Assembly: GCF_963921235.1 (NCBI RefSeq)
Contig: NC_086097.1
Location: 48,734,001 to 48,798,000, forward strand
DNA: 64,000 nt
Reading direction: 5' to 3'
DNA from: Mobula hypostoma
Lineage: Eukaryota
A program made the position numbers and the translations under genes. Below the pieces are notes generated by a model. That model was not told the origin of the DNA. It worked only from the letters and a program-made list of their open reading frames with translations, and did no database searches. This document shows positions 1-61,326 of the stretch, one piece after another (within the stretch, counting starts at the first letter, position 1; every line of letters begins with the position of its first letter).

Positions 1-380
1 AAAGAATAGGGACTCTGGGCTTCCCTACATGCAATTTCTCAAGCCTAAGTGTGGAATTTACTCAGGCATGGACTTGAGAGATTGGGTAGAAGGTTGGGAT
101 GTCTTCCTTTGCTTGGGAGTCCTAAATTTTCATCCACTAACATCTTTAGAAGCTACAATATGGAGGCAAATCTGCAGAGTTTGAAGCTATTTATGGGCTG
201 AAAACATCAACGCAGGTTACTACTGGGAGTGGACGGCTAGCCTGCACCTCATAAAGGGGTTGTCCCTTGTTGGATCAGCTGCAGGCTGTTATTGTAGTGA
301 TTCTAAGATGAATCTGGCCTTAGAAAGGTTGAATGATACTATGAGATAGGAGCCAACAGGCTTTAAGAAATGGTCTGGAT

Positions 381-734
381 TAGTGGCCCCCAAACTCTGG
401 GCCGCGGACCGATACATTGCCACAAAGAATGCAGTGGTGCAGCGGTAGCCAGAACGCACCCAGCACATCTTTAAGAAAAAAAAGCTGAAATAAACAAGCT
501 AATTAATTAGGTGCCACCCAGCACGTAAATGTCGGCCCAGATCAGAGGCGATTGCCGATCGCGTCGCCTCTGATCTGGGCCGATATTTATGTGCCGGGCG
601 GCACCTAATTAATTAGCTTGTTTATTTCAGCTTTTTTTTCTTAAAGATGTGCTGGGTGCATTCCGACTACCGCTGCACCCCTGCATTCTTTGCGGCAATG
701 TATCAGTCCACGGCCAGGAGGCTGGGGACCACTG
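381..734. mobile_element. hAT (Charlie-like) foldback MITE
   Basis: The whole element is an imperfect palindrome with ~170-bp arms and a centre near 558. Termini are (T)AGTGGCCCCCAA / GGGGACCACTG. The 8-bp TSD is GTCTGGAT (373-380) / GTCTGGTT (735-742), close to the Charlie NTCTAGAN target. Confidence 0.9.
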
Positions 735-798
735 GTCTGGTTCGTGCAAAACTGCTCTTTGAGGTAAATGCTTTTATTCAACTGGTAATTATGGATGG

Positions 799-1109
799 TG
801 TTAGCGCATGGCCAAGTGGTTAAGGCTTTTGTCTAGTGATTTGAAGGTCGCTAGTTCGAGCCTTGGTTGAGGCAGCGTGTATGTCTTTGAGCAAGGCACT
901 TTACCACACAGTGCTCTACGATGACACTGATACCAAGCTGTATGGGTCCTAATGCCCTTCCCTTGGACAACATCGGTGGTGTAGAGAGGGAAGACTTGTA
1001 GCATGGGCAACTGCTGGTCTTCCAAACAACCTTGCCCAGGCCTACGCCCTGGAAACTTTCCAAGGCACAAATCCATGGTCTCGTGAGACTAATGGATGCC
1101 TATATATAA
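799..1109 (+). mobile_element. tRNA-derived SINE with CORE-like segment and RTE-like 3' tail
   Basis: A box TGGCCAAGTGG, B box GTTCGAGCC, CORE-like TTGAGCAAGGCACTTTACC, and tail GAGACTAATGGATGCC(TA)n. 12-bp TSD AATTATGGATGG at 787-798 and 1110-1121. Confidence 0.85.
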
Positions 1110-1678
1110 AATTATGGATGGATGAATAAATATTACAGTTATTCATTATATCATTTGAGGCAAATGCTTGTCACTAGGGAAATGAAATAAGCAACTCCAT
1201 TAATGAAATTGAAATTATGCCAGTTATGTGTTAGAACTCTAGCTTGTTACAGTTTTGTTAACTTTAAAGTAAGTACTTTAGTGATTGCTGTGGTATAGAC
1301 TTACAGTATGCTGCATTACCATGTGGTACAGAAACTGCACTACGGCAGACAGGTAGTTAAAACTGCCTGACGCATTACTGACACCAGCCTCCCTGCCATC
1401 AAGGTGCCAGAACAAGCTCAAGACTATCATGAAGGATCCCATCCATCCTGTTTATGGACTATTTCTCCCACTCCCATCAGGGGAGAGGCTGCACGGCATC
1501 GATACCAGGAGCACAAGACTCAAAATCAGTGACTTCCCCCAATCCATCAGGGTGATCAAAACCTCGACCTATTTACCCACTCCACCACACCCCAACCATC
1601 ACTACATGCACCTCACCAAGCGTCACTTTAGTTCATACAATTAGTCTATGTATATAACTGTTACTATACATCGTGTTT

Positions 1679-1891
1679 GGGGGGTGCGGATGTGGTCTGG
1701 GCCTGACGTCCCGTTCACCCAGGGAAAGTGAACGCACAATACATCGCCTCTCCTTTCCCGGTGTAGTGATCGCCACGTGGTCACTGTCTGGCCTGCTAGG
1801 CAGGATGCCACTGCCAATGGCCTCTCCTACATTACTGCATCCGTAGCAACGCCTTCTCGTCGGTGCCCCCCATTTCCACTGAGCTTGCTAC
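1679..1891 (+). ncRNA. HDV-like self-cleaving ribozyme (candidate)
   Basis: P1 GGGGGGT(1679-85)/GCCCCCC(1865-71); P2 GTAGCAA(1843-49)/TTGCTAC(1885-91); P3 GCC(1851-53)/GGT(1862-64); L3 TTCTCGTC(1854-61) fits TYCHCG*Y; J4/2 CTGA(1879-82) fits CNRA. P4 is minimal. Confidence 0.75.
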
Positions 1892-2343
1892 GTCATGGCG
1901 TGACCGAGCGTCCGGTGGTATAACTGGGTGGGTAGGCTGGGCTCGTTAGCCTTGGTTGGCAGCCAGCCTAAGAGAAGGACAACTCTGAATCCAAACCCGG
2001 GCAGGTGGGCCTCATCAGCCTTGTCAGGACATCCACCTACTAGGAGAAGGACACTCCGACATAAATCCTACGACCCGAGGACCTCGCTGTCACCGTCCCA
2101 GCTTGCTAGGCTATGGCAGATGAACCCCGGGTGTAAAGGGTGGGGCCAGTACCGTGCACACTGCACTCCACCTAAAATACCATTGCGCAGGCCGAAGGAC
2201 ACGACCACGTCTACGACCATCTCTTGCAGCCGCTGTGGCCGGGCCTGTCTGTCTCGTACTGGCCTCGTCAGCCACCAGCGAGCCTGCAGAAGACTGGGCA
2301 GCCCCCTTCCTAAATTTTTATTCCTGAAGCCAAGCCATGACTG
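1679..2343 (+). mobile_element. Non-autonomous, internally deleted RTE-clade element (5' UTR plus C-terminal zinc finger and 3' end)
   Basis: 11-bp TSD ACATCGTGTTT at 1668-1678 and 2344-2354. The 3' part encodes CSRCGRACLSRTGLVSHQRAC, an RTE C-terminal zinc finger. The RTE-type 5' UTR motif GAGAAGGAC(A)ACTC occurs twice. GC/CpG-rich relative to flanks. Confidence 0.85.
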
Positions 2344-3589
2344 ACATCGTGTTTTACAGGATTGTTTTTATATTTTTATTTATTGTGTTTTGATATGCTG
2401 CATCAGATCCAAAGTAACAATTATTTTGTTCTCCTTTACACTTGTTTACTGAAGAACAGCTCTATACAATCTTGAATCATTGGAAAGATTATGAGACTGT
2501 AATATGCCATCTGACCTCACTCCTTATTTTTATTAAAAATAAGGACTGATATCAGATGGAAGGAACAGAGAGGTTCTATCCAGCCCCATGTGATTTCCAC
2601 CCAAAAGGTTAGGTTAAAACCTTTTCAGTGCTCTTGATAGCATGCCCTGAGGTTTTGCAGTTTGCAAGCCTAAAGAGTATAACTGAACAGAATTTGGACA
2701 AGTTATTACAGAGCACAGAAATTGTAAAGTAAAAGACCAGGATCTCCTACCACACCCTGGGGACATATCCAAGTCTTGTAAGATTTGTGGTTCTAATAGG
2801 AAGCAAGAATCAAAAGGGTGTTGAAGGAAAGTCCAAAATTTTCAAGAATCTACAAAGTGGGTCCATATGGCATTTCTGCTCAATTTATAAATATTTCAAT
2901 GCCAAGACACAGGCCAATAATTATTTTGTGCTGTTTATTTTATGTCTGTGTGTTCATAGACATCATGTATTTTTATAGACTGGGTTTCATTACTCATTTT
3001 TACTCCCAATACAGATTCTTTCTGAAGCTTAATCGGAAATCCAGAATATTTTACCCTGGAAATAGGTGCAGTCTTCGGAGGGAAAACAAATTCTGTAATG
3101 TGTAGGTCTTGCTAATCAGTGCCTGCTCCCACTGGAGAAAATGAACGGAGACAGATTATACTTTATAGAAGAACGTATGAGTCGTTGCTGTGACAGTGGA
3201 CTTTTGTGAAGACGCATTCTACACATCACTGGAATTTAGATATGAAATTTTAGAATACTAACAGCGATATTTTTCCTATCTCTTGAGCAATGCAGATTAA
3301 TTCCTGCGATGCCCTGCTGTGAACAGAACACATTGCATTTTGCTTCCAATTTGTCTGCAACTGATACAGAGGTAAAATCTTTTAGAAATAAAATGAGCAG
3401 GAATTTTGTTTGAAATGTGCTGCCTTCATGGAAATTTCCATTACAATATGTAAAATAAAAGTGCTGAAAGAATGACAAATTGTTTGTAGAACACGAGAAG
3501 CTTTATCTGTGTGCATCCTAAAATATCGACTTTGAAAGCCTGTCTCAGTAGAAGAGCGGCATTGCGCAAATCAAAGGGTCAGAATGTTG

Positions 3590-3930
3590 AATCCAGGCTC
3601 CAACATTTATAGTCACTCACTTTCAAGGATTCTTCATCTCATCTTCTCAATATTTATCGCTTACTTATTTATAATTTTTTTTTGTTTTCGATTTGCTTAG
3701 TTTGTTGTCTTTTGCACATTAGTTGTTTGCCCATCCTGTCAGGTGTGGTCTTTCATTGATTCTGTTATGAATCTTTGAGCTTCTGCTAGAAAATGAATTT
3801 CAGGGTTGTATATGGTGACACCATCCTAACATGCTTTTGACCAGGAAAACCTGTAACACTCACACTCCTCTTCACTAGGTATATGTATATATTTATGTGT
3901 ATATGTATTATATGTACTTTGAACTTTGAA
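3590..3930 (+). mobile_element. Rex1/L2-like LINE 3' UTR fragment
   Basis: Shares the ...AAATGAATTTCAGGGTTGTATATGGTGACA... tail with the copy at ~58590-58640 and ends in ACTTTGAACTTTGA. Confidence 0.6.
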
Positions 3931-4624
3931 ATTATGAAGAGCCACAGTGGAATCTTCAGTTCTCGTCCATTAGGGCAGAAGAGCAGAGAAAGGCTTGAGA
4001 GGACTGATTTTGCTCTGCTGAAAAGCACTTCTGGCACACAGCAAAATCAACAGCTGCCATGAAGAAATTGATGGTAGAGACTACCCTGCCCTCTGAGCTG
4101 AAGTAAGCAGTGGGTAGCGGTAAACAGCAGTGAGGGACCTATATTATGGAGAATGTAACGTAGCAATAATTAACATACTGGAAATGAGCCAGCATGTAAT
4201 GAGACCCATTCTTGCAGGCTCCATTTATTCTCTCTCTAGTGCTCTTTGTGATGCAAAAGCAAAACACTCATTTTTATGTTCCATTATTTTTCATGTAATT
4301 TATCCTGTCACTGTGATCCGCAGTTTTTCACTCAATAATACTGACAATCGGTCTGCTTCAGCACCACCTACTGCAGCTTCTATTATGAATTGAGCATTAT
4401 ATTTGAAGCAAACTTTTTCGAGTAAATTTGTTACCTAAATTCATTCAGTCGTTTTGTTCCCATCATCCAAAACTATTGGGTGTATAAAAGGCTATGGTGT
4501 GGGTTTCTTTTTTCTCCAGTACAGAAAATATTACAAAATGAGATTGATTGGAAACACTTACCACAACCCATGTCTTCAGGCATGCCAACCTGTCAAATTC
4601 CAGAGACTAGAACCAACGTACATG

Positions 4625-4790
4625 AAAACAGAAAGTGCTGGAAACACTCAGCAGGTCAGCCACCATATGTGGACTGAGTAACAGAATTAATACTTCATGC
4701 TGGTGGCCCTTTATCAGAATGAGAAAAGTTAGTTTGAAGTTGCAGAGGGTGGGAGGGACTGATGATAGAACAAAAGAGATATTTCTAATA
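4625..4790 (-). mobile_element. Penelope-like element terminal (pLTR) fragment
   Basis: Reverse-complement homology to 40810-40950 and 49773-49905. Decayed hammerhead core CTGATAA...GAAG. Confidence 0.6.
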
Positions 4791-5854
4791 ATTTTCAGAG
4801 TTTCATTCTAAACTAGTGTGAATGAGCTCGAGGGCTCTAATGGTTTGTTGGGAAGTAGAAACTCCTCATCACATGCACTACATGAGAATACTTAGAGCTA
4901 GACAAAAACATTGTAAGCAGGAAAATTTGTGTGATCACCTACTTTCACATTACTATAAAAGCAAAGAAGAAAGGACAGGGTTCTGACATTGGATTAAAGC
5001 TGATAGCTTCTCTAACACAGCATGGCTGTGTGACTTTTAACTTACTAACAGTGTGCTTTTGATTACAATCATCACTGAACTAATAGTGAGAATCTATTCC
5101 CCACTTCATCGTAGCAGAAGAGCTAATTATAATGGAGATCGTTGATTTGAGGCCTTTTCTTTCCTGTAAAGGTTATGAATTGGAAATTGATTGGCCCCAG
5201 TCTGCCTGCCACCCTGCTGGGTGAGTAAAATTAGTATTGCCAATGTTGGGAGAAGGATGTGGATCCCCTGCCATTAGCATCAATGAGTAGAACCCAGGGT
5301 CCTTCAGTTTAAATAGTTATCCATTATATACTGGATTGGATCAATATGGACATAGTCTGTAGCTCCCCACCTGCAGGAGCCCCAAAGCCACACTATTTCT
5401 TATAGCTCTACACCCTCCATTAATCTTAAAACTTGAGCAATAACCCGATAGCTTTGTGACAGCATGTGCTGTTACAAAACACCTTTTTTAATATTTCAGT
5501 TTGTATCTTATAACCATTAAGAATCTGTAGGAAAATATTAAATCATTTACAAAAATTAAAGCATATTAACATTCTTTAAAAAATAATGTATTTGAAAACA
5601 CATTAAAATTCTATTAATTAATAACAATGACCACTTTCAAGTATGTGATTATGTTAGATATGACCAGGCATAAATCAGAGGGGTCAGATACAAGGAGTAT
5701 GTGGCTCAGTAATTTGCAGCTAACCATCAATACGTTATGGCTTGCAATATTCTATGAAAACATTCTAGGCTACAATTCAGTATTCATATGTGGTGCCCAT
5801 CAGGTTCAGTTCTCTTTGGACAAATCAATATTTAAGTGTTGGCTGTAAAGACAA

Positions 5855-6445
5855 CAGCCAAACTCAAGAAAACACAACAGCACCTCCATTTCCTGAGGAG
5901 ATTGATGTGTGAGGCTTCCCTTCACCCCCATTCTAGCCAATTTTTACAGGAACACCATTGAGACTGTCCTGACCAGCTGCATCACCGTTTGATACGAGAA
6001 TTACAAAGTAGCTGACCTCAAGACTCTACAAAGAATTGCAAGGTCTGTTAAAGAGGATCATCTGGGCCTTTCTACCACCCATCAGAGATGGGCCCTAAGC
6101 TTTGTCAATGATCCCTCCCATCTGACTAACAATCTTTTTGATCCTCTACCATCAGGCAGAAGGTATCATAGCATTAGGACAAAGGCAGTTAGGATGGGAA
6201 ACACAATCTTCTCCAAGGCCATGAGAGACTACTACCACCACCCAGGTATCATCACATATGAAGCGTCAGTGGCATTATACTGGTTAACTTCTGTTGTAAA
6301 TATACCTTTTTTTTTGTTATTTGTAGTGATATTACTTTATGTATTGTGCGTGAGTAACATGTGCTGTGATGTGCACCTTGATCCAGAGGAACATTGTTTT
6401 GCTTGGCAGTATACATGCATATGGTTGAATGACAAGCAATAAGCT
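5855..6445 (+). mobile_element. Rex1/L2-like LINE 3' fragment
   Basis: Degenerate ORF2 C-terminus (KTQQHLHFLRRL...PLPSGRRY) followed by 3' UTR. Confidence 0.7.
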
Positions 6446-9256: not shown

Positions 9257-11321
9257 TCAGGAATCCACTGAACTGAGCTGTATGAGAGGAGGTCCATGTA
9301 GTTTAACAAATATAAGTACTGATACATGATTTATGAGAATTCTTGAATGTGTTGTTGTTATTATCAAGTTTATGTGACTGAATCCTCTCTCACACTCAGC
9401 AGTACTAATAGGAATAACTTGTGAACAGCTCAGTAATGGGTGTAAATCTTGGGGGATGCAGAGTCCATGATCCTCCACATAATCTCTGAAGGCATTTATT
9501 ACAGAGGAAGAGGAAAGCTTAGACCCTTTACAGAGAGATGACATTGCAGCTTCTCCATAATTAGGCGGTATTTCAGCAGGCCAGTTAACTTTATCAAGGA
9601 CACACATTTCATTTAGCAGGGATTTACACATACTTTGAGGTTTAGAAGTTTGAGAATCTTTCAAGGATGTTGCCGTCAACATATGGTGCTACAAATTGTT
9701 TATAAGACTAGTAAGAAATTGTAGACAATTAATGGAGAGAATTTTGTTGTTGCTTGTTAAGGTAATTCCCTTTTCAACTGCCTCTTGAGCTTCTAGTGTT
9801 TTTGTACCAGGTTGCTCTTTCCATCCATGCAATGATCTTATGCTCCGTTGGATCAGTTTTTTCTGCATAAACAATCGTACTGGTGCGTTTCTGTAAACAC
9901 TCTGACAGTAAACCAAATTCATGCCATGTGTCATACATTAGAGCTAAGTCCAATAGAAACTGTTTTGAAGGGAGTCTTTTCAACAGACCTTCATAGGTTT
10001 TTCTGTCACTCCCTGATCTTGCTTCATCTTTCATTGCTTTTTCAAAATGAAGACACAGTGTTTCATAATTTTGCCACACTGCTGAACCTGTTCGAAATGA
10101 GCTAGCTACCCACTTGGTGCCCAGAACACGGCCTATTTTCCAAATTTGTTGTTCCAGTTGAGAGGCACATTCAGACAGCTCCTTTTGATTTAGGGGTGAC
10201 CTACTGTAAGCAGAGTACAATTCGTCCATAAATGATTGAAAATGATTTATTCCATGAACTTCTCTCACCGAATCACCTACTGCAAGTTCTAATATGTGAT
10301 TAAGACAGTGCCAAATTATCACATCAGGATAATGTTCCTTGAGAATTGTAGCAACACCAGATTTAACACCAAGCATTACGCTCGCCCCATCACTAGCAAA
10401 TGCTGTAAGATTCTGTTTCAAGTAAGAGTCATCAAACCCATGGTTATTGAGACAGTTCAATAGATGCTTAGCAATAGGTGCAGCTTTCTGATCAGGCAGT
10501 TCAATTAGATCTAAAAACATAAAATGGGGATCACCTTCCTTATCACTTCCGCATTTCAAATAAACTATTAGGGCGGTCTTAATGCTCAGGCTTGTTGATT
10601 CATCAATGAAAACAGAAAATTTGCCATTTATCTGCTTGATATGCTGGCAAATTTTCTTTTTCATATTAATAGCTATGTGATTAATTATCCCTGTAGCACT
10701 AGTGCAGGAATGTAGTCCAATTCCAAAGTCAATACCATTTTTATTTTGAAGTTCCAATAAGCCAACCTGATCAGAGTATGGTCTGTCATTCTGAGCTAAA
10801 TAATATGCAGAACGAAAAATTGAACAAGTTGTCTTTAGATGCGAAGTATTCATGGTGTCACATAATTTTCCAAGAGCATCTTCACTAGCTATATTTTCAA
10901 CACTTACAGCAGCAGTGTGAGCTTTTGATAGTTTTTGATCAACAATTTTTCTTCTGAAAGACTTCAAGCGTGTACTTCGACCGGTTCCATAATAGGATAC
11001 TTGGTACATCTGCCAATCATTTGACAGCCTCAAACCCTTAGAAGTGAAAAGTGTCAGATTGCTTTTGTTTGCACATACTTTACACCCAAGTTTATCATCC
11101 TTGAAGTCTAACCGGGGCTAAGTTTCCTTCTTTTTCTTCCACATTTCTTCAGTCCAAACATCTGAACAGGGATACAAGCCTGACTTCAATGGATCATTAC
11201 TTTCAGAACTGCATTTGGACACGATTAGAAAATTGCCAAGCAGGCAAAACACAGCTTTTGTCACTTTTACTGTTAGCAGTTTCTTGTACATTATTCTTGT
11301 TACACTCCTCAGCTTGTTCAC
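9257..11321 (-). pseudogene. hAT transposase pseudogene
   Basis: Motifs VFIDEST, ASDGASVM, WHCLNH (CxxH) and IPISTAECERGFS (dimerisation domain with catalytic E). ORFs 11118-11321 and 9774-11033 are in one frame separated by a stop; frameshifts occur near 9.7-9.9 kb. Confidence 0.9.
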
Positions 11322-12660: not shown

Positions 12661-15110
12661 TGTTGTGTATTTATTAATTCAGTGATATTTTAAATATATT
12701 GTTTGATTAAGCATCCTTTGTTTGTTTAAATAATTCATTAATAGTATGTGAATGGAATACGAGGGGTGATTGATAAGTTCGTGGCCTAAGGTAGAAAGAT
12801 ATGAGTAATTAACTTCAAACTTTCTGCATAATCATTCAAAGAGTTTACCTGCATATGCATGTAACGAGAACTGTATAACCCATCTTCTTCTACTTTAGGC
12901 CACAAACTTATCAATCATCCCTGCTGTGGACCCTTTCTGGAGGTCCAAGATCCGTATGCTCCACGACCGCTGGACTAAGTGTGTAAATATAGGAGGGGAC
13001 TATGTTGAAAAATAAATGTGCTTGGTTTTCTAAAATTGACTCCTTCTACCAGAGGCCACAAACTTATCAATCACCCCTCGTACGTCATCATGACCCACGT
13101 TGTACGAAGGTGTCTCACTTAAGTAAAAACAAACCAAGACATGTTCTCCTAGGCTCTTGTTTTTTTTTCTGTCAATTAGTTTTATTTTTTGGAGTTATAA
13201 AACGTAACAGTGGAGATGAGGAAGTTTTAACTGAACCCAAGATGACTACCTATCTGTTGAAGAGCACCGAGGTGTTCGAGTTTTTAAAAAACTCGAATAA
13301 CGAAAAGAGTGTCTTCAGGAGGAGACAGATGTTCAAGTTAAAGAAGGGCAGAAAATGGACAAATTCACAGGTTCATAAACAGTGAGTACCAGATGATAAT
13401 ATTCATAAATAAAATAAGTGGGAATGGCTGGCTGCATTGGAAAGATTGATACTTTTGATTACACAAAAGATAACTGGATATTGCATATTGAGTGAATTGA
13501 GCAGTATGTTGCAGCAAATGAAATAGCCAATGAAAAGCGAATGCCAATTTTGCTGAGTGTATTGGATATAAAGGCATGCAGGTTGCTTAGAAGTTTAACT
13601 ACACCAACCAAACCAGCTGAAATGAGCTTTGCTGATATGATGAAAGTAATGCAGGAACATTTAGAACTGAAACCATTGGTGATTGCAGAGCACATTAGGT
13701 TTCATAAACAGAATTGAAAAGGAGGGAAGTCTATTTTGCCATACGTAGCTGAATTGAAGAAGTTGAATGAGTATTGTCAGTTCAGTAATGGGCTTAGTGA
13801 TGCACTGAGAAATTGCTCAGTTTGTGGAATCTTATAAGAAAACATTCAAAAACAACTCCTAACTGTAGCACAAACTTCATTTAAAAGAGCAATTGAAATA
13901 TCTGCATCAATGGAAATAGCAGGTTGAGACGCAATTGAGTTGCAGTCGGGAATGAAAGAGAACGTAAACAAAATTGCAACGTTTAAACAGAAACCGGCCT
14001 GGCCAAACAAATTGTGATATAGTTGTGGCAAGGGGTTACATACATCTGACAAGTGCAGTTTAAAGGCAAGGCTTGAAGAAAATGCAACAAAGAAGGTCAC
14101 ATACAAAAAGCATGTCAGGCAGGCAAAAATAAATGGACTGCACGTAGAATCAACTGATATTGAATTAACAAAGGTACAGGATGATATCACAGCAATCTTT
14201 AAGGATTGCAATGGAAAATTCAGACATATGAAGGGTAAAATAGTGTTAAATTAAAATGCCACATCTAAGTTTTACCAAGCCCATCCAGTTCCTTATATTA
14301 TTCATGATAAAGTAGCCAGTGAGCTAGATTGCATGGAGGTTGAAAGACTTCTTTGCAAGGTTGACTGGAGCCCAGTTGTGCCAGTAGCCAAGAAAGATGG
14401 GGCTGTCAGGATCTGTGGTGATTTTAAGATTACCATCAACTCAGTAATGAAAATATATCAATACCCTCTGCACCGGATAGAGGATACCTTTACAAACTTT
14501 TCTGGAAGAAAACACTTCAACAGAGTGTATGTAGCTGACGCCTTCCTACAGATGGAGATGGAAGAAGAGTCCACAGTGTTTTTCACCATAAATACTCACA
14601 AAGGGCTTTATCGCCATAATCTGCTTATTTTTGAAGTAGCATCTGTAGCTGCACGCTGGAAGAAAGCTAGTGATAAGGTGCTGCAAGGCTGTCCAGGAAC
14701 TCAGTGTTACCTGGATGACATCATTGTTACTGATGAGGATGACAAGGGACATCTCCAAAATCTCAAGACAGTGATAAAGAGGTTAAAAGACTATGGGCTC
14801 AACAAAAGATTATCTATTGAGTTGCGTTCTACATTGAGTTGGAGCTTACAGCTAAGCAGGGGGGAATGTTGTGCATTTAATAATTCAGTAATATTTGAGT
14901 AATATTGTAAATATATTGTTTGATAAGCATTCTTTATTTAAATAATTCATTATGGATTACGTGTCACAGCACATGAATGGCATACAAAATCACGTTGCCA
15001 CGTTATACGTGCGTGCCTCGCTCAAAGTAAACACAAGCAAGACATGTTCTCTTGGGCTCTCATCTTTTTTTTACAATTAGTTTTATGTTTTGGAGCTACA
15101 AAGTATAACA
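12661..15110 (+). mobile_element. Gypsy LTR retrotransposon, internally deleted
   Basis: LTRs TG..CA at 12661-13209 and 14867-15110. PBS-like TGGAGATGAGGA and PPT AAGCAGGGGGGAA. Gag remnant; RT motifs RICGDFK and YLDDII. TSD AGAAG/GGAAG. Confidence 0.9.
12760..13080 (+). mobile_element. Mariner-derived MITE inserted in the Gypsy 5' LTR
   Basis: TA TSD; ~37-bp TIR CGAGGGGTGATTGATAAGTT(C/T)GTGGCC; mariner C-terminal remnant RWTKCVNIGGDYVEK*. Confidence 0.9.
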
Positions 15111-23817: not shown

Positions 23818-26724
23818 TTAGTCCCACTCCCCCACCTTCTCACCATAACCTTTGATGCCCCGGATACTCAGATATCTATCAATCTCTGCCTTAAATACAC
23901 CCAATGACTTGGCCTCCACTGCTGCCCATGGCAACAAATTCCATAGATTCACCACCCTCTGGCCAAAAAAATTTCTTGGCATTTCTGTTCTGAATGGGTG
24001 CCCTTCAATCCTTAAGTCATGCCCTCTTGTACTAGACTCCCCCATCATGGGAAACAACTTTGCAACATCCACTCTGTCCATGCCTTTCAACATTCGAAAT
24101 GTTTCTATAAGGTCTCCCCTCATTCTGCAAAACTCCAAGGAATACAGTCCAAGAGCGGACAAACGTTCCTCATATGTTAACCTCTCATTCCTGGAATCAT
24201 TCTAGTGAATCTTCTCTGTACCCTCTCCAACGTCAGCACATCCTTTCTTAAACAAGGAGACCAAAACTGCCCACAGTACTCCAAGTGAGGTCTCACCAGC
24301 ACCTTATAGAGCCTCAACATCACATCCCTGCTCCTATACCCTATTCCTCTAGAAATGAATGCCAACATTGCATTTGCCTTCTTCACTACTGACTCAACCT
24401 GGAGGTTAACCTTAAGGGTATCCTGGACAAGGACTCCCAAGTCCCGCTGCATCTCAGAACTTTGAATTCTTTCCCCATTTAAATAATAGTCTGCCCATTT
24501 ATTACTTCTGCCGAAGTGCATAACCATACACTTTCCAACATTGTACTTCATTAGCCACTTCTTTGCCCATTCTTCCAATCTATCCAAGTCTCTCTGCAGA
24601 CTCTCCATTTCCTCAGCACTACCGGCCCCTCCACCTATCTTCATATCGTCAGGAAACTTAGCCACAAAGCCATCTATTCCATAATCCAAATCGTTGATGT
24701 ACAATGTAAAAAGAAGTGGCCCCAACATGGACCCCTGTGGAACACCACTGGTAACCGGCAGCCAACCAGAATAGGATCCCTTTATTCCCACTCTCTGTTT
24801 CCTGCCAATCAGCCAACGCTCTATCCGTTCTATTCCATCTATTCCATGCGCTCTTATCTTGTTAAGTAGCCTCATGTGTGGCACCTTGTCAAAGGCCTTC
24901 TGAAAATCCAAATATACAACATCCACTACATCTCCCTTGTCTAGCCTACTAGTAATTTCCTCAAAAAATTGTAATAGGTTTGTCAGGCAGGATTTTCCTT
25001 TAAGGAATCCATGCTGAGTTCTGCCTATCTTGTCATATGCCTCCAGGTACTCTGTAACCTCATCCTTGACAATCGACTCCAACAACTTCCCAACCACCAA
25101 TGTCAAGCTAACAGGTCTATAATTTCCTTTTTGCTTCCTTGCGCCCTTCTTAAATAGCAGAGTGACATTTGCAATCTTCCAGTCCTCCGGAACCATGCCA
25201 GGATCTATCGACTTTTGAAAGATCATCACTAATGCCTCCACAATCTCCACAGCTACTTCCTTTAGAACACATGGGTGCATTCCATCTGGTCCGGGTGATT
25301 TATCTACCTTTAGACTATTCAGCTTCCTGAGTACTTTCTCTGTCGTAATTGTGACTGCGCACACTACTCTTCCCTGCCACCCTTGAGTGTCCGGTATACT
25401 GCTGTCTTCCTCAGTGAAGACTGATGCAAAATACTCATTCAGTTCCTCTGCCATCTCCTTATCTCCCATTACAATTTCTCCAGCATCATTTTCTATCAGT
25501 CCCATATCTACTCTCACCTGTCTTTTACTCTTTATATACTTGAAAAAGCTTTTAGTATCCTCTTTGATATTATTTGCTTGCTTCCTTTCATGGTTAATCT
25601 TTTCTCTCTTAATGACCTTCTTAGTTTCCTTTTGTAAGGTTTTAAAAACTTCCCAATCCTCTGTCTTCCCACTAATTTTTGCTTCCTTGTATGCCCTCTC
25701 CTTTGCTTTAACTTTGGCTTTGACTTCTCTTGTCAACCATGGTTGCATCCTTTTTCTATTTGAAAATTTCTTCTTTTCTGGAATATACCTGTCTTGCACC
25801 TTCCTCACTTCTCACATAAACTCCAGCCACTGCTGCTCTGCCATCTTTCCCGCCAGTATCCCTTTCCAGTCTACTTTGGCCAGTTCCTCTCTCATGCCAC
25901 TGTAATTTCCTTTACTCCACTGAAATACCGACACATCAGATTTCGGCTTCACTTTTTCAAATGTCACAGTGAACTCAATCATGTTATGATCACTGCCTCC
26001 TAAGGGTTCCTTCACCTCAATCTCTCTAATCACCTCTGGTTCATTACACAATGCCCAATCCAGTACAGCCGATCCCTTAGTGGGCTCAACAACAAACTGT
26101 TTTAAAAAGCCATCTCGCAGACATTCTACAAATTCTCTCTCGAGATCCAGTGCCAACCTGATTTTCCCAATGCACTCGCATGTTAAAATCCCCCACAATT
26201 ATCATAACACTGCCCTTCTGACAAGCCTTTTCTATTTCCTGTTGTAATTTGTAGTCCACATTACTACAGCTGTTTGGAGGCTTATAAATAACTGCCATCA
26301 GCGTCCTTTTACCCCTGCTATTTCTTAGCTCAACCCATAAAGATTCTGCACCTTCCGATCCTATATTACCTCTTTCTAATGATTTAATATCATTTCTTAC
26401 CAATAACGCCATGCCTCCCCCTCTGCCTACCTTCCTATCCTTCCGATACACCGTGTATCCTTGGACGTTCAGCTCCCAGAGACATGCATCCTTCAGCCAC
26501 ATCTCAGTGATGGCCACAATATCATACCTGCCAATCTGTAGCTGTACGACAAGATCATCCACCTTATTCCTTATGCTGCGTGCATTTAAGTACAACACCT
26601 TAAGACCAGTATTTGGTACTTTTCGCTTTGATTTCACTGCAACATTTTTGCACTGCAACTCATCCCAATGGCTACAAATTTGTCCCATCACCTCCCTGTC
26701 CTTCCTGACATCTTTACTGCTCAC
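23818..26724 (-). pseudogene. CR1 ORF2 (AP endonuclease plus reverse transcriptase), frameshifted
   Basis: YLNARSI, AITEMW, GDFN, SDH; RT motifs LDFQKAFDKV and GVPQGS; catalytic motif reads FPDD. Split over four ORFs. Confidence 0.93.
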
Positions 26725-26816
26725 TATCTTAGATTTATTTCTGTTTTCCCCTTCCTCCGCTCTGTCATTCCAGTTCCCATCCCCCTGCCAAATTAGCTTA
26801 AACCCTCCCTAACAGC

Positions 26817-27728
26817 TCAATTAAACTTTCCCGCCAGGATATTGGTCCCCTTCGGGTTCAGGTGTAACCCGTCATTTTTGAATAGGTCATACTTCCCCCA
26901 GAAGAGATCCCAATTATCCAAGAATCTGAAGCCCTGTACCCTACACCAGTCTCTCAGCCACACATTCATCTGCCTGATTCTACTATTCTTCCCCTCCCTA
27001 GTACGTGGCACAGGTAGCAATCCCGGGATTACTACCCTGGAGGTCCTGCTTCTCAGCTTCTTTCCTAACTCCTGGAAATCTCTCTTCAGAACCTCCTCTT
27101 TTGTCCTATCTATGTCATTGGTACCAACATGTACCAAGACAACTGGCTGCTCACCCTCCCCCTTTAGAATATTCAGGACCCGATCCGAGACATCCCGTAC
27201 CCTGGCACCTGGGAGGCAACACACCATGCGGGTATCTCTATCAGGCTCACAGAATCTCCTGTCCATTCCCTTGACTATTAAATCCCCTATGACTACCGCA
27301 TTTCTCTTCTCCCTCCTTCTCTCCTACACAACAGCGCCAGGCTCAGTGCCAGAGACCCGGTCACCGTGGACGTCCCCTGTCAGATCATCCCCCTCAACAG
27401 CATCCAGAACAAGATATTTGTTGCTGAGGGGAACAGCCACAGGTGTGCTCTCCACTATCCGGGCATTTCCCTTCCCTCTCTTGACAGTGACCCAGTCTTC
27501 TGACCCCTGTAGCCTAGGCATGACTACCTCCCTGTAGCTCCTGTCTATCATCTCTTCACTTTCCCTGATAAGCAGTAGGTCATCAAGCTGCAGCTCCAGA
27601 TCCCTAACACGGTCTCTGAGGAGCTGCATCTCGGTGCACCTGGTGCAGATGTGGCCATCAGGGAGGCCGGAGGTCTCCCAGGATACCCTCATCTGACACC
27701 CTGAACAAAGCACTAACCCTGCAGGCAT
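26817..27728 (-). pseudogene. CR1 ORF1 (zinc finger/coiled coil plus SGNH esterase)
   Basis: CSGC...HICTRC, heptad LRDRVRDLELQL, CLPGARVRDV, HVGTND, DGLHLN. One in-frame stop at 27324-26. Confidence 0.9.
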
Positions 27729-31319: not shown

Positions 31320-32210
31320 CTTTTGTTATACAGGATGAAGAACAGCCTCTGTATTATCCAAGACCTCTTCAAAGAGCAATGCCTTAGGAAGGCAGCATCC
31401 GTCATTAAGGATCCTCATCACCCAGGACATGCTCTCTTCCCATCGGGATGGAGATACTGAAGCTGAAAGGAACACACTCAGCAATTCAGGAACAGCTTCT
31501 TCCCTCCTGCCATCTGATTTCTAAGACTACCTCATTACCTTTTTATGTGTTATTTTGTTTGTACTAATAATTTTAATTAATATAAAAACATATATACACA
31601 CCTGTAACTCACTTTTGTTCCTCTATATTTATTTATCAGGTATCAGACATCTTTGCCATAGAGGGAGTACAAAGAAGGTTCACCAGATTGATTCCTGGGA
31701 TGGCAGGTCTTTCATATGAAGAAAGACTGGATGAACTGGGCTTGTACTCGTTGGAATTTAGAAGATTGAGGGGGGATCTGATTGAAACGTATAAGATCCT
31801 AAAGGGATTGGACAGGCTAGATGCAGGAAGATTGTTCCCGATGTTGGGGAGGTCTAGAACGAGGGGTCACAGTTTGAGGATAGAGGGGAAGCCTTTTAGG
31901 ACCGAGGTTAGGAAAAACTTCTTCACACAGAGAGTGGTGAATCTGTGGAATTCTCTGCCACAGCAAACTGTTGAGGCCAGTTCATTAGCTATGTTTAAAA
32001 GGAAGTTAGATATGGCCCTTGTGGCTACAGGGGTCAGGGGGTATGGAGGGAAGGCTGGGTTCTGAGTTGGATGATCAGCCATGATCATAATAAATGGCGG
32101 TGCAGGCTCGAAGGGCCGAATGGCCTACTCCTGCACCTATTTTCTATGTTTCTATGTTTCTATGTTTCATCGTACTACTGCCATAAAGTTAACAAATTTA
32201 ATATGCCGTG
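31320..32210 (+). mobile_element. Rex1/L2 3' fragment with a young 5'-truncated CR1 inserted at ~31645-32167
   Basis: Uninterrupted CR1 C-terminal ORF 31688-32065 (SLEFRRLRGDLIETYK...WNSLP) and (TTTCTATG)n tail. Confidence 0.85.
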
Positions 32211-42606: not shown

Positions 42607-45600
42607 ATCCTGAACAACCGAGGACCCATGGAGTGGGTTTTACCATCTGAAACAGCCTACTTCAGATGCTGACAGAGCAACCACTGGGAATCAACGAACG
42701 TCTCATGACTCTGTGAATTCAGCTTGTCAAGAACCAACACGCCACCATCATCAGCGCCTATGCTCCAACTCTGGACGCTGAAGATGAAATAACGATGAAC
42801 TTCTACGCCCAACTTGACCACGTCCTTTCCTCTGTTCCCAACAACGACAAGATCATTCTCTTGGGAGACTTCAATGCCAGAGTCGGGAAAGATCATAGGC
42901 ACTGGACTGGAATAATAAGCAAGGAAGGAGTTGGCAAGGTCAACGCCAATGGAACACTCCTCGTCACCAAATGTGCTGAACACAACCTGGTGATTACAAA
43001 CACCCTATTTCGCCAGAAAGACAGGCACAAAGTCTCCTAGCAGCATCCGCGCTCCAAACATTGGCACCTCATCAACTACATCATCGTACGATCTCGGGAC
43101 CAACAAGATGTACTGACAGCAAGAGCTGTTACTGGTGCCAACAAATGCTGGACAGACCATCGACTCATCTCATCCACCATGAGAATGAAGATTCAGCCCA
43201 AAAGGAAACACCAAAATCAGAACACTATTAAGAAATTCGATGTTGACATCTTTCAAGACATCAACCATGTACAGAAGTTCCAACAAAATCTTACAGAACA
43301 ACTGCCTCAACAAATTCCACCATCTGTAGAAGAACACTGGAATCAATTGAAGAACACTATCATCACCTCCTACAAGAAAACAATTGGGTTCAAGACAAAA
43401 AAACATCAGGATTGGTTCGATGATAACAACAAACTACTCCAACAACTCATCGACGAAAAGAGAAAAGCTTTCATCACCTTACAAAATGATCAACAATCGG
43501 CTACCAAAAGGAAACACTATCAGGAATGCAAGGCTGCGGTCCAGAAGAACACCCAAAACCTGAAAAATCAATGGAGGAAGGAAGCTCAGAAAATCCAACA
43601 ACTAGCAGATGCCAACGACTCTCGAGGCTTTTTCAACACAACTAAAGCTATTTTTGGCCCATCCATTCATGGTCAAGCCCCTCTCAAAAGCAAAGATGGT
43701 TTAACCATCCTGAAGAGCAATGCTGACATCAATTCTAGATGGAGGGAGCACTTTGAAGATCTTCTGAATCAAACCGTCTCATTTGACAGGAATGTGATTA
43801 AAAATATTCCAAAACAGCCTGTTGATGACTCCCTAAAGAAAATACAAACACAAAGTCAAGGAAGCCATCAAAACCTTGAAAAACAACAAGGCCGCTGGAT
43901 TCGATGGAATACCAGCCAAGATCTACAAAATTGGAGGTAACCCGCTTCATTACCAACTGCATCAACTTCTCATCAAGTTCTGGATAAATGAAGACATACC
44001 AGCAGACTTTAGAGACTCAGCAATCATTACCATCTACAAAAGGAAAGGCAATCGATCCGAATGCAGAAACTATCGTGGAATTTCCCTGTTAGCAACAGCA
44101 GGAAAGATCCTCACCCGCATCATGAACAACCCACTCAAGCCTTTAGCTGAGAAGATCCTTCCGGAGACACAAGCCAGTTTTAGACCATCATATGGAGCAA
44201 TCGACATGATCTTCACAATGCGACAACTACAAGAAAAATGTCGTGAACAACTTCAACCTTTGTACATGGCATTCATCGACCTCACCAAAGCCTTCGACTC
44301 AGTATCAAGGGAACTCCTATGGGATGTCCTACCCACCTATGGATGCCCTGAAAATCCTGAGACTCCTCCATGATGGCATGCTTGCCACAGTCATGGTCAG
44401 CAACAGTAACTGTGAGCCTTTTCAAGTTAGATCAGGAGTAAAACAGAGATGCGTGATTGCCCCAACTTTGTTCACCATCTTCATTGCGACAATCATCCAC
44501 ATCATCAAGGATGACCTACCCCCAGGAATCAAAATTGTCTACAGAACAGATGGCAGACTTTTCAATCTTGCCCATCAAGTCCAAAAACAAGACATCCACG
44601 AGTTCCCTCATCGAGTTCCAATACACAGATGACAACAGTGTTGCAGCTCTCTCAGAAAACCACCTACAACAGATTCTGACTGCTTTCAACTGTGCATACA
44701 GGAAACTTGGACTTACCATCAATTCCAAGAAGACTCAGGTCATCTATCAACTGTCACCAACTGAGAAAAATTGGATAGAACCATCAATACAACTTGGCGA
44801 AATAACCCTGGAAAACGTGGACCACTTTCCGTATCTTGGAAGTCACCTCTCCTCCAATGTCGACCTTAATGACGAGATCCAACATCGTCTTAAATGCGCG
44901 GGAACAGCTTTTGGACATCTCCAAACAAGAGTCTTTCATGATTGTGACATCCGAACAAACACCAAAATGTTAGTGTACAAAGCAGTGGTGATCCCAACCC
45001 TCTTGTATGCATCAGAAACCTGGACAACATACCGATGACATCTGAAGGCACTTGAAAAGTTCCAGCAATGCTGTCTTCAAAACATCTTAAATATCAACTG
45101 GGAAGATGGAAGAACCAATGTCAGCGTGCTAAATGAAGCAAAAACAAGCGTTGAAGCCTACATCGTCAAGAACCAACTAAGATGGAGCAGTCATGTTGTT
45201 CGGATGAAAGACAAATGTCTGCCAAAACAAATCTTCTATTCCCAGCTTAAAGGTGGCAAACGTAAAAGAGGCAGACAACAGAAGAGATTCAAAGATGTCT
45301 TAAAAGCCAACATGAAGAATTGTAACATCGACATCAACAATTGGGAAACCAATGCCAAAGGCAGGAAACTCTGGTAAGCCATCATCCGAGAAGGAACAGC
45401 AACTTTCGAAGCCAACAGATGTGCAGAATTAGAAGAAAAGAGAAGAAAATGGAAAGAGAGGCAGCAACAACCAAAGCCCAATCTGCCATCTGGAACTACC
45501 TCTTTTGAGTGTGGACGAACTTTCAAAGCCAAGATTGGACTCATAAGCCACTTGAGAGTCCATAAGTAGATCAACAGAACGAAGACCATCATCCTCGACC

Positions 45601-59199: not shown

Positions 59200-61326
59200 A
59201 TAGAACGTAGAACATTGACATTTACAGTACAGTACAGGACATTCGGCCCACAATGTTGTGCAGGCCATGTAACCTACTCTAGAAACTGCCTAGAATTTCC
59301 CTACTGCATACCCCTCTATTTTTCTAAACTCTATGTACCTATCTAAGAGACTCTTAAAAGACCCTATTGTAGCTGCTTCCACCACCGCCGCCGGCAGTGC
59401 ATTCCACGCACCCACCACTCTCTATGTGGAAAAACTTACCCCTGGCATCCCCTCGGTATCTATTTCCAATCACTTTAAATCTATGCCCCCTCATGTTAGC
59501 CATTTCAGCCTTGGGAAAAAGGCTCCTGCCAACCACACGATCAATGCCCCTCATCATCTTATACATCTCTATCAGGTCACCTCTCATCCTCCGTTGCTCC
59601 AAGGAGAAAAGGCCATGTTCACTCAACCTATTCTCATAAGGTACGCCCTCCAATCCAGGCAACATCCTTGTAAATCTCCTCTGCACCCTTTCTATAGTTT
59701 CCACATCCTTCCTGTAGTGAAGTGACCAGAACTGAACACAATACTCCAAGTGGGGCCTGATCAAGGCCTTATATAGCTGTAACATTACCTCACGGCTCTT
59801 GAACTCATTCCCACAATTGATGAATGCCAACACACCATTCGCCTTCTTAACAACACTGTCGACCTGCACAGCAGCATTGAGTGTCCCATCGACAGGGAAC
59901 CCAAGATCTCTCAGATCCTCCACACCGCCAAGAGTCTTAACATTAATATTATATTCTGCCTTCAAATTTGACCTACTAAAATGAACTACTTCACACTTAT
60001 CTGGGTTGAAATCCATCTGCCACTTTTCAGCCCAGTTCTGCATCCTATCAATGTCCCGCTGTAACCTCTGATAACCCTTCAGACTATCTACAACACCCAC
60101 AACCATTGTGTCATCAGCAAACTTATTAACCCACCCTTCTACTTCTTCATCCAGGTCATTTATAAAAATCACAAATAGGAGGGGTCCCAAAACAGATCCC
60201 TGTGGAACTCCACTGGTCACTGATCTCCATGCAGAATATAAACTATTTACAACCACCCTTTGTCTTCTGTGGGCAAGCCAATTCTGGATCCACAAAGCAA
60301 GGTCTCCTTGGATCCCATGCCTCCTTACTTTCTGAAGGAGCCTTGCATGGGGAACCTTATAAAATGCCTTACTGAAATCCATATACACTACATCCATTGC
60401 TCTGCCTTCATCAATGTGTTTTGTTACTTCCTCAAAGGATTCAATCAGGCTCGTAAGGTACAACCTACCTTTGACAAAGTCATGCTGACTATCACTAATC
60501 ATATTATGTCTCTCCAAATGTTCATAAACCCTGCCTCTCAGGATCTTCTCCAACAAATTGCCCACCACTGAAGTCAGACTCACTGGTCTATAATTTCCTG
60601 GGTTATCTCTATTCCCTTTCTTGAACAAGGAAACAACATTTGCAATCCTCCAATCCTCCGGTACTTCTCCCTTTCCTATTGATAATGCAAAGATCATCTC
60701 AAGAGCCTCAGCAATCTCCTCCCTCACTTCCCACAGTAGCCTGAGGTATATCTCATCTGGTCCTGGTGACTTATCTAACTTAAAGCTTTTCAAGAGCTCC
60801 ATCACATCATGTTTCTTAATGTCTATATGCTCAAGTGCTTCAGTCCACTGTAAGTCATCTCCACAATTGCCAAGGTCTTTTTCCCTCGTGAATACTGAAT
60901 CAAAGTATTCATTAAGTACCTCCGCTCCCTCCTCCGACTCCATGCACACATTTTCACTATTGCACCTGGTTGGTCCTATTCTCACACATCTCATCCTCTT
61001 GCTCTTCACGTACTTGAAGAATGCCTTGAGGTTTCTCTTAATCCTGCTCACCAAGGCCTTCTCATGGTCCCTTCTGGCTCTCCTAATTCCATTCTTAAGC
61101 TCTGTCCTAGTAACCTTGTAATTTTCTGGAGCTTTAACAGTACCTAGTTTCTTGAATCTTTCATATGCTTTTCTTTTCTTCTTAACTAGTTTTTCTATAT
61201 CCTTTGTACACCATGGTTCTTTAACCCTGCCACCCTTTCCCACCTCAGTGGAATATACCTATGCAGAACTCCATGCAAATGTTCCCTGATCATTTGCCAC
61301 ATTTCTGCCATACATTTCCCTGAGAC
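59200..61326 (-). mobile_element. 5'-truncated CR1 with a 629-codon open RT frame (59354-61243)
   Basis: NYRPVSLTS, MDFSKAF, GVPQGSVLGP, KFADDT, RPHLEYCVQFW; TTCTA-type 3' tail. Confidence 0.93.

Follow-up and report, generated by a model that had tools for sequence, protein, structure and literature searches.

Short copies of an RTE retrotransposon with a predicted HDV-like ribozyme at the 5' end carry nearly copy-specific deletion junctions

We found that a 665-bp repeat in the analysed 64-kb stretch of DNA (the window, ~40% GC) consists of the first ~545 nt and the last ~120 nt of a ~4.1-kb autonomous RTE of the same genome, with a predicted HDV-like ribozyme at its 5' end and about 3.5 kb lost between the two arms. 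Other short copies are built likewise, from the 5' ~530-555 nt and the last ~115-135 nt of the element, and the joint changes from copy to copy, with 39 distinct forms among 44 copies. These near copy-specific junctions, together with an abundant autonomous partner and with tails and variants common to long and short copies, point to repeated de novo formation from full-length RNA. We therefore consider it rather probable that short copies are recurrent products of a template jump by the reverse transcriptase (RT) at insertion, with later conversion between copies. The ribozyme and the bipartite form are of known kinds; the recurrent hotspot deletion is the apparently unreported part.

A predicted HDV-like ribozyme at the element's 5' end

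The layout of the window element is given in Table 1. Its relatives were collected from the 3.48-Gb vertebrate genome (200 contigs; its repeats give the impression of a cartilaginous fish) in three family searches, in each of which the best 40 of 193-916 candidates were scored. Relatives among the best 40 of 916 candidates were 86-91% identical to the window element over nearly its full length. A consensus was built from 30 genomic loci and per-position counts were taken from 29 non-duplicate copies, which in their alignment lie ~6% from this single consensus. L023 was left out of the counts as a duplicate of L022; the two are 37 kb apart (G000:C9) and identical in element and flanks, a recent segmental or assembly duplicate.

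Table 1. Features of the RTE copy in the window
Feature	Positions	Strand	Remark
5' target-site duplication (TSD), 11 bp	1668..1678	+	
Internally deleted RTE copy, 665 bp	1679..2343	+	41 positions differ from the family consensus
Two extra G outside the family P1 (5' junction heterogeneity)	1679..1680	+	
P1 5' strand, family register G6C	1681..1687	+	predicted cleavage 1680/1681
J1/2, 154 nt, multi-hairpin in consensus	1688..1841	+	
P2 5' strand	1842..1850	+	
P3 (1851-53/1862-64) and L3 (1854-61)	1851..1864	+	C1856 = predicted P1.1 partner of 1872
P1 3' strand (1865-71) and P1.1 position 1872	1865..1872	+	
6-nt linker replacing P4, then J4/2 CNRA	1873..1882	+	putative catalytic C1879
P2 3' strand	1883..1892	+	C1884 bulged
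Start of the autonomous element's 182-codon upstream ORF, cut by the deletion	1895..2221	+	ATG at 1895
Conserved RTE 5' domain, two tandem copies (1930-97, 1999-2068)	1930..2068	+	from sequence; motif in the PMC5786205 supplement
Deletion junction	2221..2223	+	5' arm end 2221, extra T 2222, 3' arm start 2223
3' arm: C-terminal C-x2-C...H-x3-C end of the RTE ORF and 3' UTR	2223..2336	+	
Microsatellite tail, TGAC-repeat type	2337..2343	+	type also in long copy L043 and short copy L011
3' target-site duplication	2344..2354	+	

We used a strict HDV-like descriptor whose limits came from general knowledge of HDV and CPEB3, with nested double-pseudoknot order and a 7-bp P1 starting at G1. It gave a single match in the family consensus, with G1 at 1681 and the elements in the order P1-P2-P3-L3-P1'-J4/2-P2'; dinucleotide shuffles gave 0/3000. 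In the 64-kb window no strict match was found on either strand, and a relaxed version (A allowed at P1.1) matched exactly once, at the window element. Of 58 copies examined singly, 6 still passed the descriptor. The family is thus predicted to have what the preliminary description put forward, an RTE element with an HDV-like ribozyme at its 5' end.

Core positions were kept in 21-29 of the 29 copies, the main losses being at CpG sites. The P1.1 position 1872 is G in 22/29 copies and A in 5/29, and its predicted L3 partner is C in 28/29; the P1.1 pair between the L3 C and the G after P1' is therefore present in the consensus and missing from the window copy, which has A1872. These counts confirm the earlier suspicion that this A is a product of CpG decay. 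The putative catalytic C1879 is C in 28/29 copies. Position 1880 is C in 23/29 and T, likewise a product of decay, in the window copy, position 1881 is G in 22/29 and A in 7/29 (still R), and A1882 is found in 28/29, so that the ancestral J4/2 reads CCGA, a CNRA motif. G1851 is private to the window copy (A in 27/29 copies). The core conserved across the 29 copies suggests an ancestral motif with a Watson-Crick P3, a single P1.1 pair and a CCGA J4/2. The window copy itself is probably inactive, given the decay at P1.1 and its failure with the strict descriptor.

Several coordinates had been placed correctly before, namely the TSDs, P1', P3, L3 and C1879, and the reported lack of P4 was confirmed. 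P2, described at 1843-49/1885-91, is present and extends to 1842-50/1883, 1885-92 with a C1884 bulge. The exact 5' end and first ribozyme base, given as G1679, had to be moved by two bases: the family G1 is 1681, and C1687 pairs with G1865. The former P1 register was possible only because the window copy has T1685, a change common to this copy and its neighbour L002 (G in 22/29 copies). Ahead of the P1 C stand 5-6 letters in 11 of 19 copies with a called TSD and 7-9 in 5 of them (G microhomology counted); in the window copy there are 8. The multi-hairpin character of J1/2 holds in the consensus, while several of the helices named earlier are copy-specific. The proposed closing helix, 1686-92/1838-44, shares positions with P2 and P1 and owes its pairing to two changes in the window copy, and the helix at 1712-18 has a mismatch in the consensus. 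Consensus J1/2 folds into four or five other hairpins, for example 1688-94 with 1713-19.

The covariance-model check suggested at the outset lent no support, as Rfam scans of window 1-6000, of 1670-1910 and of L003 returned no HDV, CPEB3 or drz match; the 154-nt J1/2 may defeat these models. Spurious miRNA matches in the scan were due to a MITE-like palindromic element at 382-733 (170-nt arms, 91% complementary, 12-nt loop). Protein scans for diverged ribozyme-bearing relatives that could be used for covariation found none among metagenome, viral and prokaryote contigs, and a DNA-pattern search gave three loci with the RTE 5' domain, none of which carried the ribozyme (0/3).

An HDV-shaped fold that does not cleave, serving as a protective or translation element or persisting as a relic, with the 5' end set by the transcription start, would account for the Rfam result and for a P1.1 of a single pair, a bulged P2 and an absent P4. 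We regard it as unlikely. All descriptor features occur together at the element's first bases, in an arrangement that none of the 3000 shuffles reproduced; R2 ribozymes without P4 and with a long J1/2 are described as cleaving (PMC3774820), and RTE 5' ribozymes are on record (via PMC6765202, PMC5786205 and PMC3774820). We conclude from the aligned copies that the HDV-like fold is real at the family level, as a predicted ribozyme. By its fold, position and precedent, the source element very probably carried an active one.

The preliminary description also stated that Pol III boxes were lacking, and we agree. No B box was found within one mismatch in the copy or in the consensus, and loose A-box-like matches occur only at or after element position 218. 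A SINE-type Pol III head is thus absent (no B box).

The autonomous partner and other elements in the window

Loci carrying the ribozyme core or the 3' end were found to extend forward into an APE domain or, in the other direction, into an RT domain. An APE arm was assembled from 7 loci and an RT arm from 9 loci; RVT_1 was matched, and Pfam gave no match for the 147-aa APE piece. In L074 the two element ends lie ~4.14 kb apart. The internal deletion proposed earlier could thus be specified: the window element joins both ends of an autonomous RTE. The nearest proteins, with up to 81% identity, each have a single APE+RT ORF of ~1059 aa. Homologues carry generic names; matches with a named source (75-77% identity) come from a shrimp and from lancelets. 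The two best protein matches end in the C-terminal motif of the element's 3' arm. A single APE+RT ORF (~1050 aa, of which the middle ~750 nt are unread), a short 3' UTR, a microsatellite tail and TSDs were all found, and by this anatomy the source element is an RTE-clade LINE. The conserved RTE 5' domain is present twice, and by eye its first copy matches the motif of RTE-4_NV, RTE-8_HRo and other elements printed in the supplement of PMC5786205.

The upstream ORF of 182 codons, seen in the window element and in long copies, has its ATG two bases past ribozyme P2 and stops short of the APE domain, and the first ATG of the main ORF lies within that domain. The upstream ORF is possibly an ORF1-like frame or a translation device. 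The RT/C-terminal region is 75-81% identical to RTE proteins of assemblies including shrimp and lancelets, and such identity across marine animals suggests horizontal transfer. Other RTE families with the same conserved 5' domain and different flanks were seen in public runs X19, X4 and X1 and at L092-L094. L091, a continuation of L078, is a long RTE copy broken by a stretch that resembles an LTR retroelement, with motifs of zinc-knuckle and protease type and numerous stops.

The window holds several further RT-bearing ORF remnants. A second RTE-like LINE family is represented by a broken ORF at 43041-45038 (+), with no DNA match to the ribozyme element. LINE ORF remnants lie at 24177-27323 (-), where RVT_1 was confirmed, and at 59354-61258 (-) and 31586-32065 (+); we take all three to be CR1-like. 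At 14255-14902 (+) an LTR-type RT fragment gave a weak RVT_1 match, and at 9774-11117 (-) a 447-aa transposase-like frame had no Pfam match. By eye, ~797-1105 was read as a SINE, with A and B boxes resembling those of tRNA genes and a short tail rich in A and T.

Deletion junctions and likeness between neighbouring copies

Junctions were compared in 44 short copies, that is 45 minus the unresolvable L086; those of L030, L070 and L079 were set by hand. The 5' breaks fall from -1 to +24 (a 25-nt zone) and the 3' breaks from -15 to +4 (a 20-nt zone), with one outlier at +18. We counted 15 one-base insertions (8 T, 6 A, 1 C), 12 blunt joints, 11 with 1-4 nt of microhomology and 6 longer insertions. 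Since most of the 44 copies came from junction-spanning queries, the clustering rests mainly on a junction-blind sample of 29 non-self loci, found with the ribozyme core as query and classified by hand, in which 16 were hotspot-deleted, 8 long and 5 deleted elsewhere. Contigs of three out of four public runs (X18, X19, X4) also had joints that varied within this zone, among the 15 of 26 joints listed. L064, L068, L077, L080 and L089 carry internal deletions that lie elsewhere than in the hotspot, and two of these loci keep the hotspot 5' break with a later 3' break.

The preliminary description took the element for a single self-propagating non-autonomous family that uses an RTE protein in trans. 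This model found no support, given the diversity of junctions, an abundant autonomous partner with the same ends, and the features common to both size classes. Three tail types were found in both long and short copies, and three common 5' variants segregate in both. No fixed difference between short and long copies was detected; the smallest p was 0.0075 (a CpG site among ~530 5' sites), and one 3' site gave p 0.017. Because gene conversion can carry 5' variants from one size class to the other, the argument from shared variants is weakened; that from tails is touched less.

A broader form of the same model, a true non-autonomous family like RTE-N, RTESINE, Bov-A, NARTc or the R2 SIDEs, in which one or more short masters are released by the ribozyme and copied in trans and many masters create the variety of junctions, is possible though doubtful. 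Families of this type are published (described in PMC5786205 and PMC3414825), and the short copies have what such masters need to show: both ends of the autonomous RTE without its middle, the ribozyme, a tail and TSDs. They also form the majority of ribozyme-bearing loci sampled (16/29), and four junction forms recur, in 3+2+2+2 copies, so that some short copies may have been re-copied. Against this, a short master predicts a uniform junction, and the forms observed would require about one master per copy. Copies with the same junction have only 0-2 rare mutations in common, one such pair (L005/L026) has tails of different types, and no diagnostic site is specific to short copies.

An origin at the DNA level after insertion, by microhomology-mediated deletion of long copies or by long/short conversion remodelling one ancestral junction, appears very unlikely. 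Microhomology in 11/44 junctions would fit it, as would the conversion between neighbours, which looks pervasive (below). However, the breaks are confined to ~25 nt at either end of a 3.5-kb stretch that has no long direct repeat, a 9-10 nt look-alike downstream of the 5' zone is used by no junction, and 15/44 junctions carry a single extra base. Conversion, moreover, would copy junctions, not diversify nearly all of them.

Three other causes were tried and rejected. Spliceosomal splicing was ruled out, as the breaks vary over ~20 nt. A selected in-frame fusion found no support, with 16/44 junctions in frame, near chance. A long-range RNA duplex across the junction was unsupported as the cause of the hotspot: between the two break zones no duplex was dominant, and the best window ranked in the top 5% among 8064. 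The strongest 5'-3' duplex pairs 5' ~230-280 with the 3' arm, away from these zones (-49.8 kcal/mol, reached by 3/60 shuffles).

Under our preferred reading, template jumping from full-length RNA, the ribozyme would cut the element from read-through host transcripts just before G1681, as in the precedents of R2, L1Tc and RTE. Each short copy would then arise de novo during target-primed reverse transcription. The RT would first copy the 3' ~120 nt of the element RNA and jump to a narrow landing zone just beyond the RNA's 5' domain, often adding 0-1 untemplated base or using 1-4 nt of microhomology, and would finish at the ribozyme's G-run. The likeliest cause of the fixed zone is that the RTE protein would hold the 5' ~550-nt domain beside the 3' end. 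At a later stage, long tracts would have been homogenised by non-allelic gene conversion acting over 0.5-4 Mb, among them the 5' part of the window copy with that of a neighbour 575 kb off.

Evidence for this last step comes from rare mutations. Of the pairs formed by 58 copies, 7 of the 9 lying within 5 Mb had at least three rare non-CpG 5'-arm mutations in common, against 1 of 1644 other pairs (Fisher p 4e-17; the 5-Mb cut was chosen after the top pairs were known). The neighbour pairs are L001/L002, L022/L074, L067/L079, L012/L078, L006/L013, L020/L021 and L003/L088, to which L005 with G000:C9:173.12 Mb and L043 with G000:C21:188.96 Mb can be added. Neighbours occur in both orientations, with unrelated flanks where these were read, and sharing extends over 0.35 to at least 1.27 kb. 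The best relative of the window copy is L002, 575 kb away, with which it has T1685 and a 3-nt insertion in common. The best match of L005 (96%) is 3.96 Mb away, with others at most 92% among the matches listed. The L043 ORF, picked with knowledge of a nearby copy, has a 98% match at 1.29 Mb and others of at most 93% among the matches listed. No close local match appeared for the L014 5' arm, the L059 ORF or the L074 ORF among the matches listed.

Segmental duplication was rejected as the source of this likeness, as the flanks of 10 pairs match, if at all, in scattered repeat-like pieces of 67-90% identity. A flank search with L043 did not recover its neighbour among the best 40 of 5451 candidates, a weak negative.

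Local capture, in which the RT would begin at the 3' end of one RNA and switch to a ribozyme-released 5' fragment transcribed from a neighbouring copy, would explain both the junctions and the likeness of neighbours. Long-short neighbours make up three of the four most related pairs, and the common mutations extend along most of the 5' arm and leave out the 3' arm: in six neighbour pairs the 3' arms have 5 mutations in common, where a common source would give 11.2 and unrelated arms 5.4 (P=0.03). The 5'-only pattern is equally predicted by conversion, because homology ends at the junction. In L022/L074 the 5' arms are 97.7% alike, while the L022 3' arm (best other match 93%) and the L074 ORF (best 92%) have no close relative among the matches listed; the 3' ends of L074 and L067 were judged indirectly, by absence from the best-40 matches of the L022 and L079 3' arms. 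That 3' arm and that ORF appear as old as the family, so both insertions would predate the sharing. Moreover, local sharing spans 1.27 kb of ORF in a long-long pair (98%). We therefore think local capture unlikely. The megabase-range sharing of rare mutations is best read, from these alignments, as non-allelic gene conversion after insertion, which fits better than local retrotransposition. Such long-range likeness between neighbours may hold genome-wide.

A bolder version holds that the RTE RT routinely jumps from the template 3' end onto ribozyme-released 5' RNA, often from a copy within a few megabases, so that most ribozyme-bearing insertions would be fresh chimeras. We give it little credence. 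If true, the ribozyme-capped 5' domain would be a programmed landing pad, which would explain why bipartite elements occur only in ribozyme-bearing clades and why neighbours resemble each other.

Significance and comparison with known systems

Copy-by-copy deletion in a fixed zone would show the birth of bipartite RTEs directly and in testable form, and a recurrent deletion offers a handle on why RTEs spawn such elements. The hotspot would also map the RNA ends held by the RTE protein, the 5' ~550 nt and the 3' ~120 nt. RTE-based gene-writing platforms have been described (PMC13708176), and held RNA ends bear on their templates and on the loss of internal cargo. If neighbouring copies at megabase range prove alike in general, the dating of repeats and the calling of subfamilies in the genome would be biased.

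Ruminski et al. in 2011 reportedly placed HDV-like ribozymes at the 5' ends of RTE, R2, R4 and L1Tc elements. HDV-like ribozymes at RTE 5' ends are reported in work cited by PMC6765202, PMC3774820 and PMC5786205. Like the RTE, R2, R4 and L1Tc ribozymes, the present one has the nested double-pseudoknot order at the element's first bases and a long J1/2 (PMC3774820, PMC6765202), and like the silkmoth R2 ribozyme it has no P4 (PMC3774820). The variable 5' junctions likewise recall systems in which a 5' HDV-like ribozyme cleaves at the element's end. Unlike known HDV-like ribozymes, its sequence is not in Rfam and its activity is a prediction.

R2 template jumps are recurrent RT jumps with junctions that vary from copy to copy. 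U6/L1 chimeras also recur (cited in PMC3414825). The short copies described here resemble both in the recurrence of the proposed jump and in the variation of the junction; unlike both, the landing would be inside the element's own 5' region, in a fixed internal zone. In our literature search, which covered sources other than Repbase reports, the Vingi paper, most subscription papers and bioRxiv supplements, neither copy-by-copy hotspot deletion in an RTE nor megabase-range homogenisation among LINE copies was found on record.

For conversion, the nearest parallel is with neighbouring Alu elements, in which non-allelic gene conversion is elevated within <10 kb (Aleshin and Zhi 2010, cited in PMC6598467). 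As there, neighbouring copies have mutations in common. Unlike there, the distances are 0.5-4 Mb, the tracts 0.35 to at least 1.27 kb, and most neighbour pairs sampled are affected.

Bipartite non-autonomous RTEs are common, and a link with the ribozyme has been raised as a question (PMC5786205, PMC7245038, PMC4844689). According to PMC5786205, bipartite elements without an ORF are made by RTE, Ingi, Vingi and R2 alone, and few LINE groups give rise to such derivatives 'for unknown reasons'. The present short copies are like RTE-N1/N2_Lch, RTESINE1/2, WALLSI3 and Bov-A (PMC5786205) in joining an RTE 5' part to the 3' end without a Pol III head, and in having the conserved RTE 5' domain and a microsatellite tail. 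Their 5' arm, in contrast to these bipartite elements, is long (~545 nt, including the start of the upstream ORF), and where each of those families is described with one consensus structure, here nearly every copy's junction differs. Like the R2 SIDEs and NARTc/RIME (PMC3414825), they are ribozyme-capped and internally deleted. For R2 SIDEs a template jump is named as one possible origin and recombination is favoured, each SIDE being traced to one founding event (PMC3414825), whereas here the event appears to recur in most of the retrotranspositions sampled.
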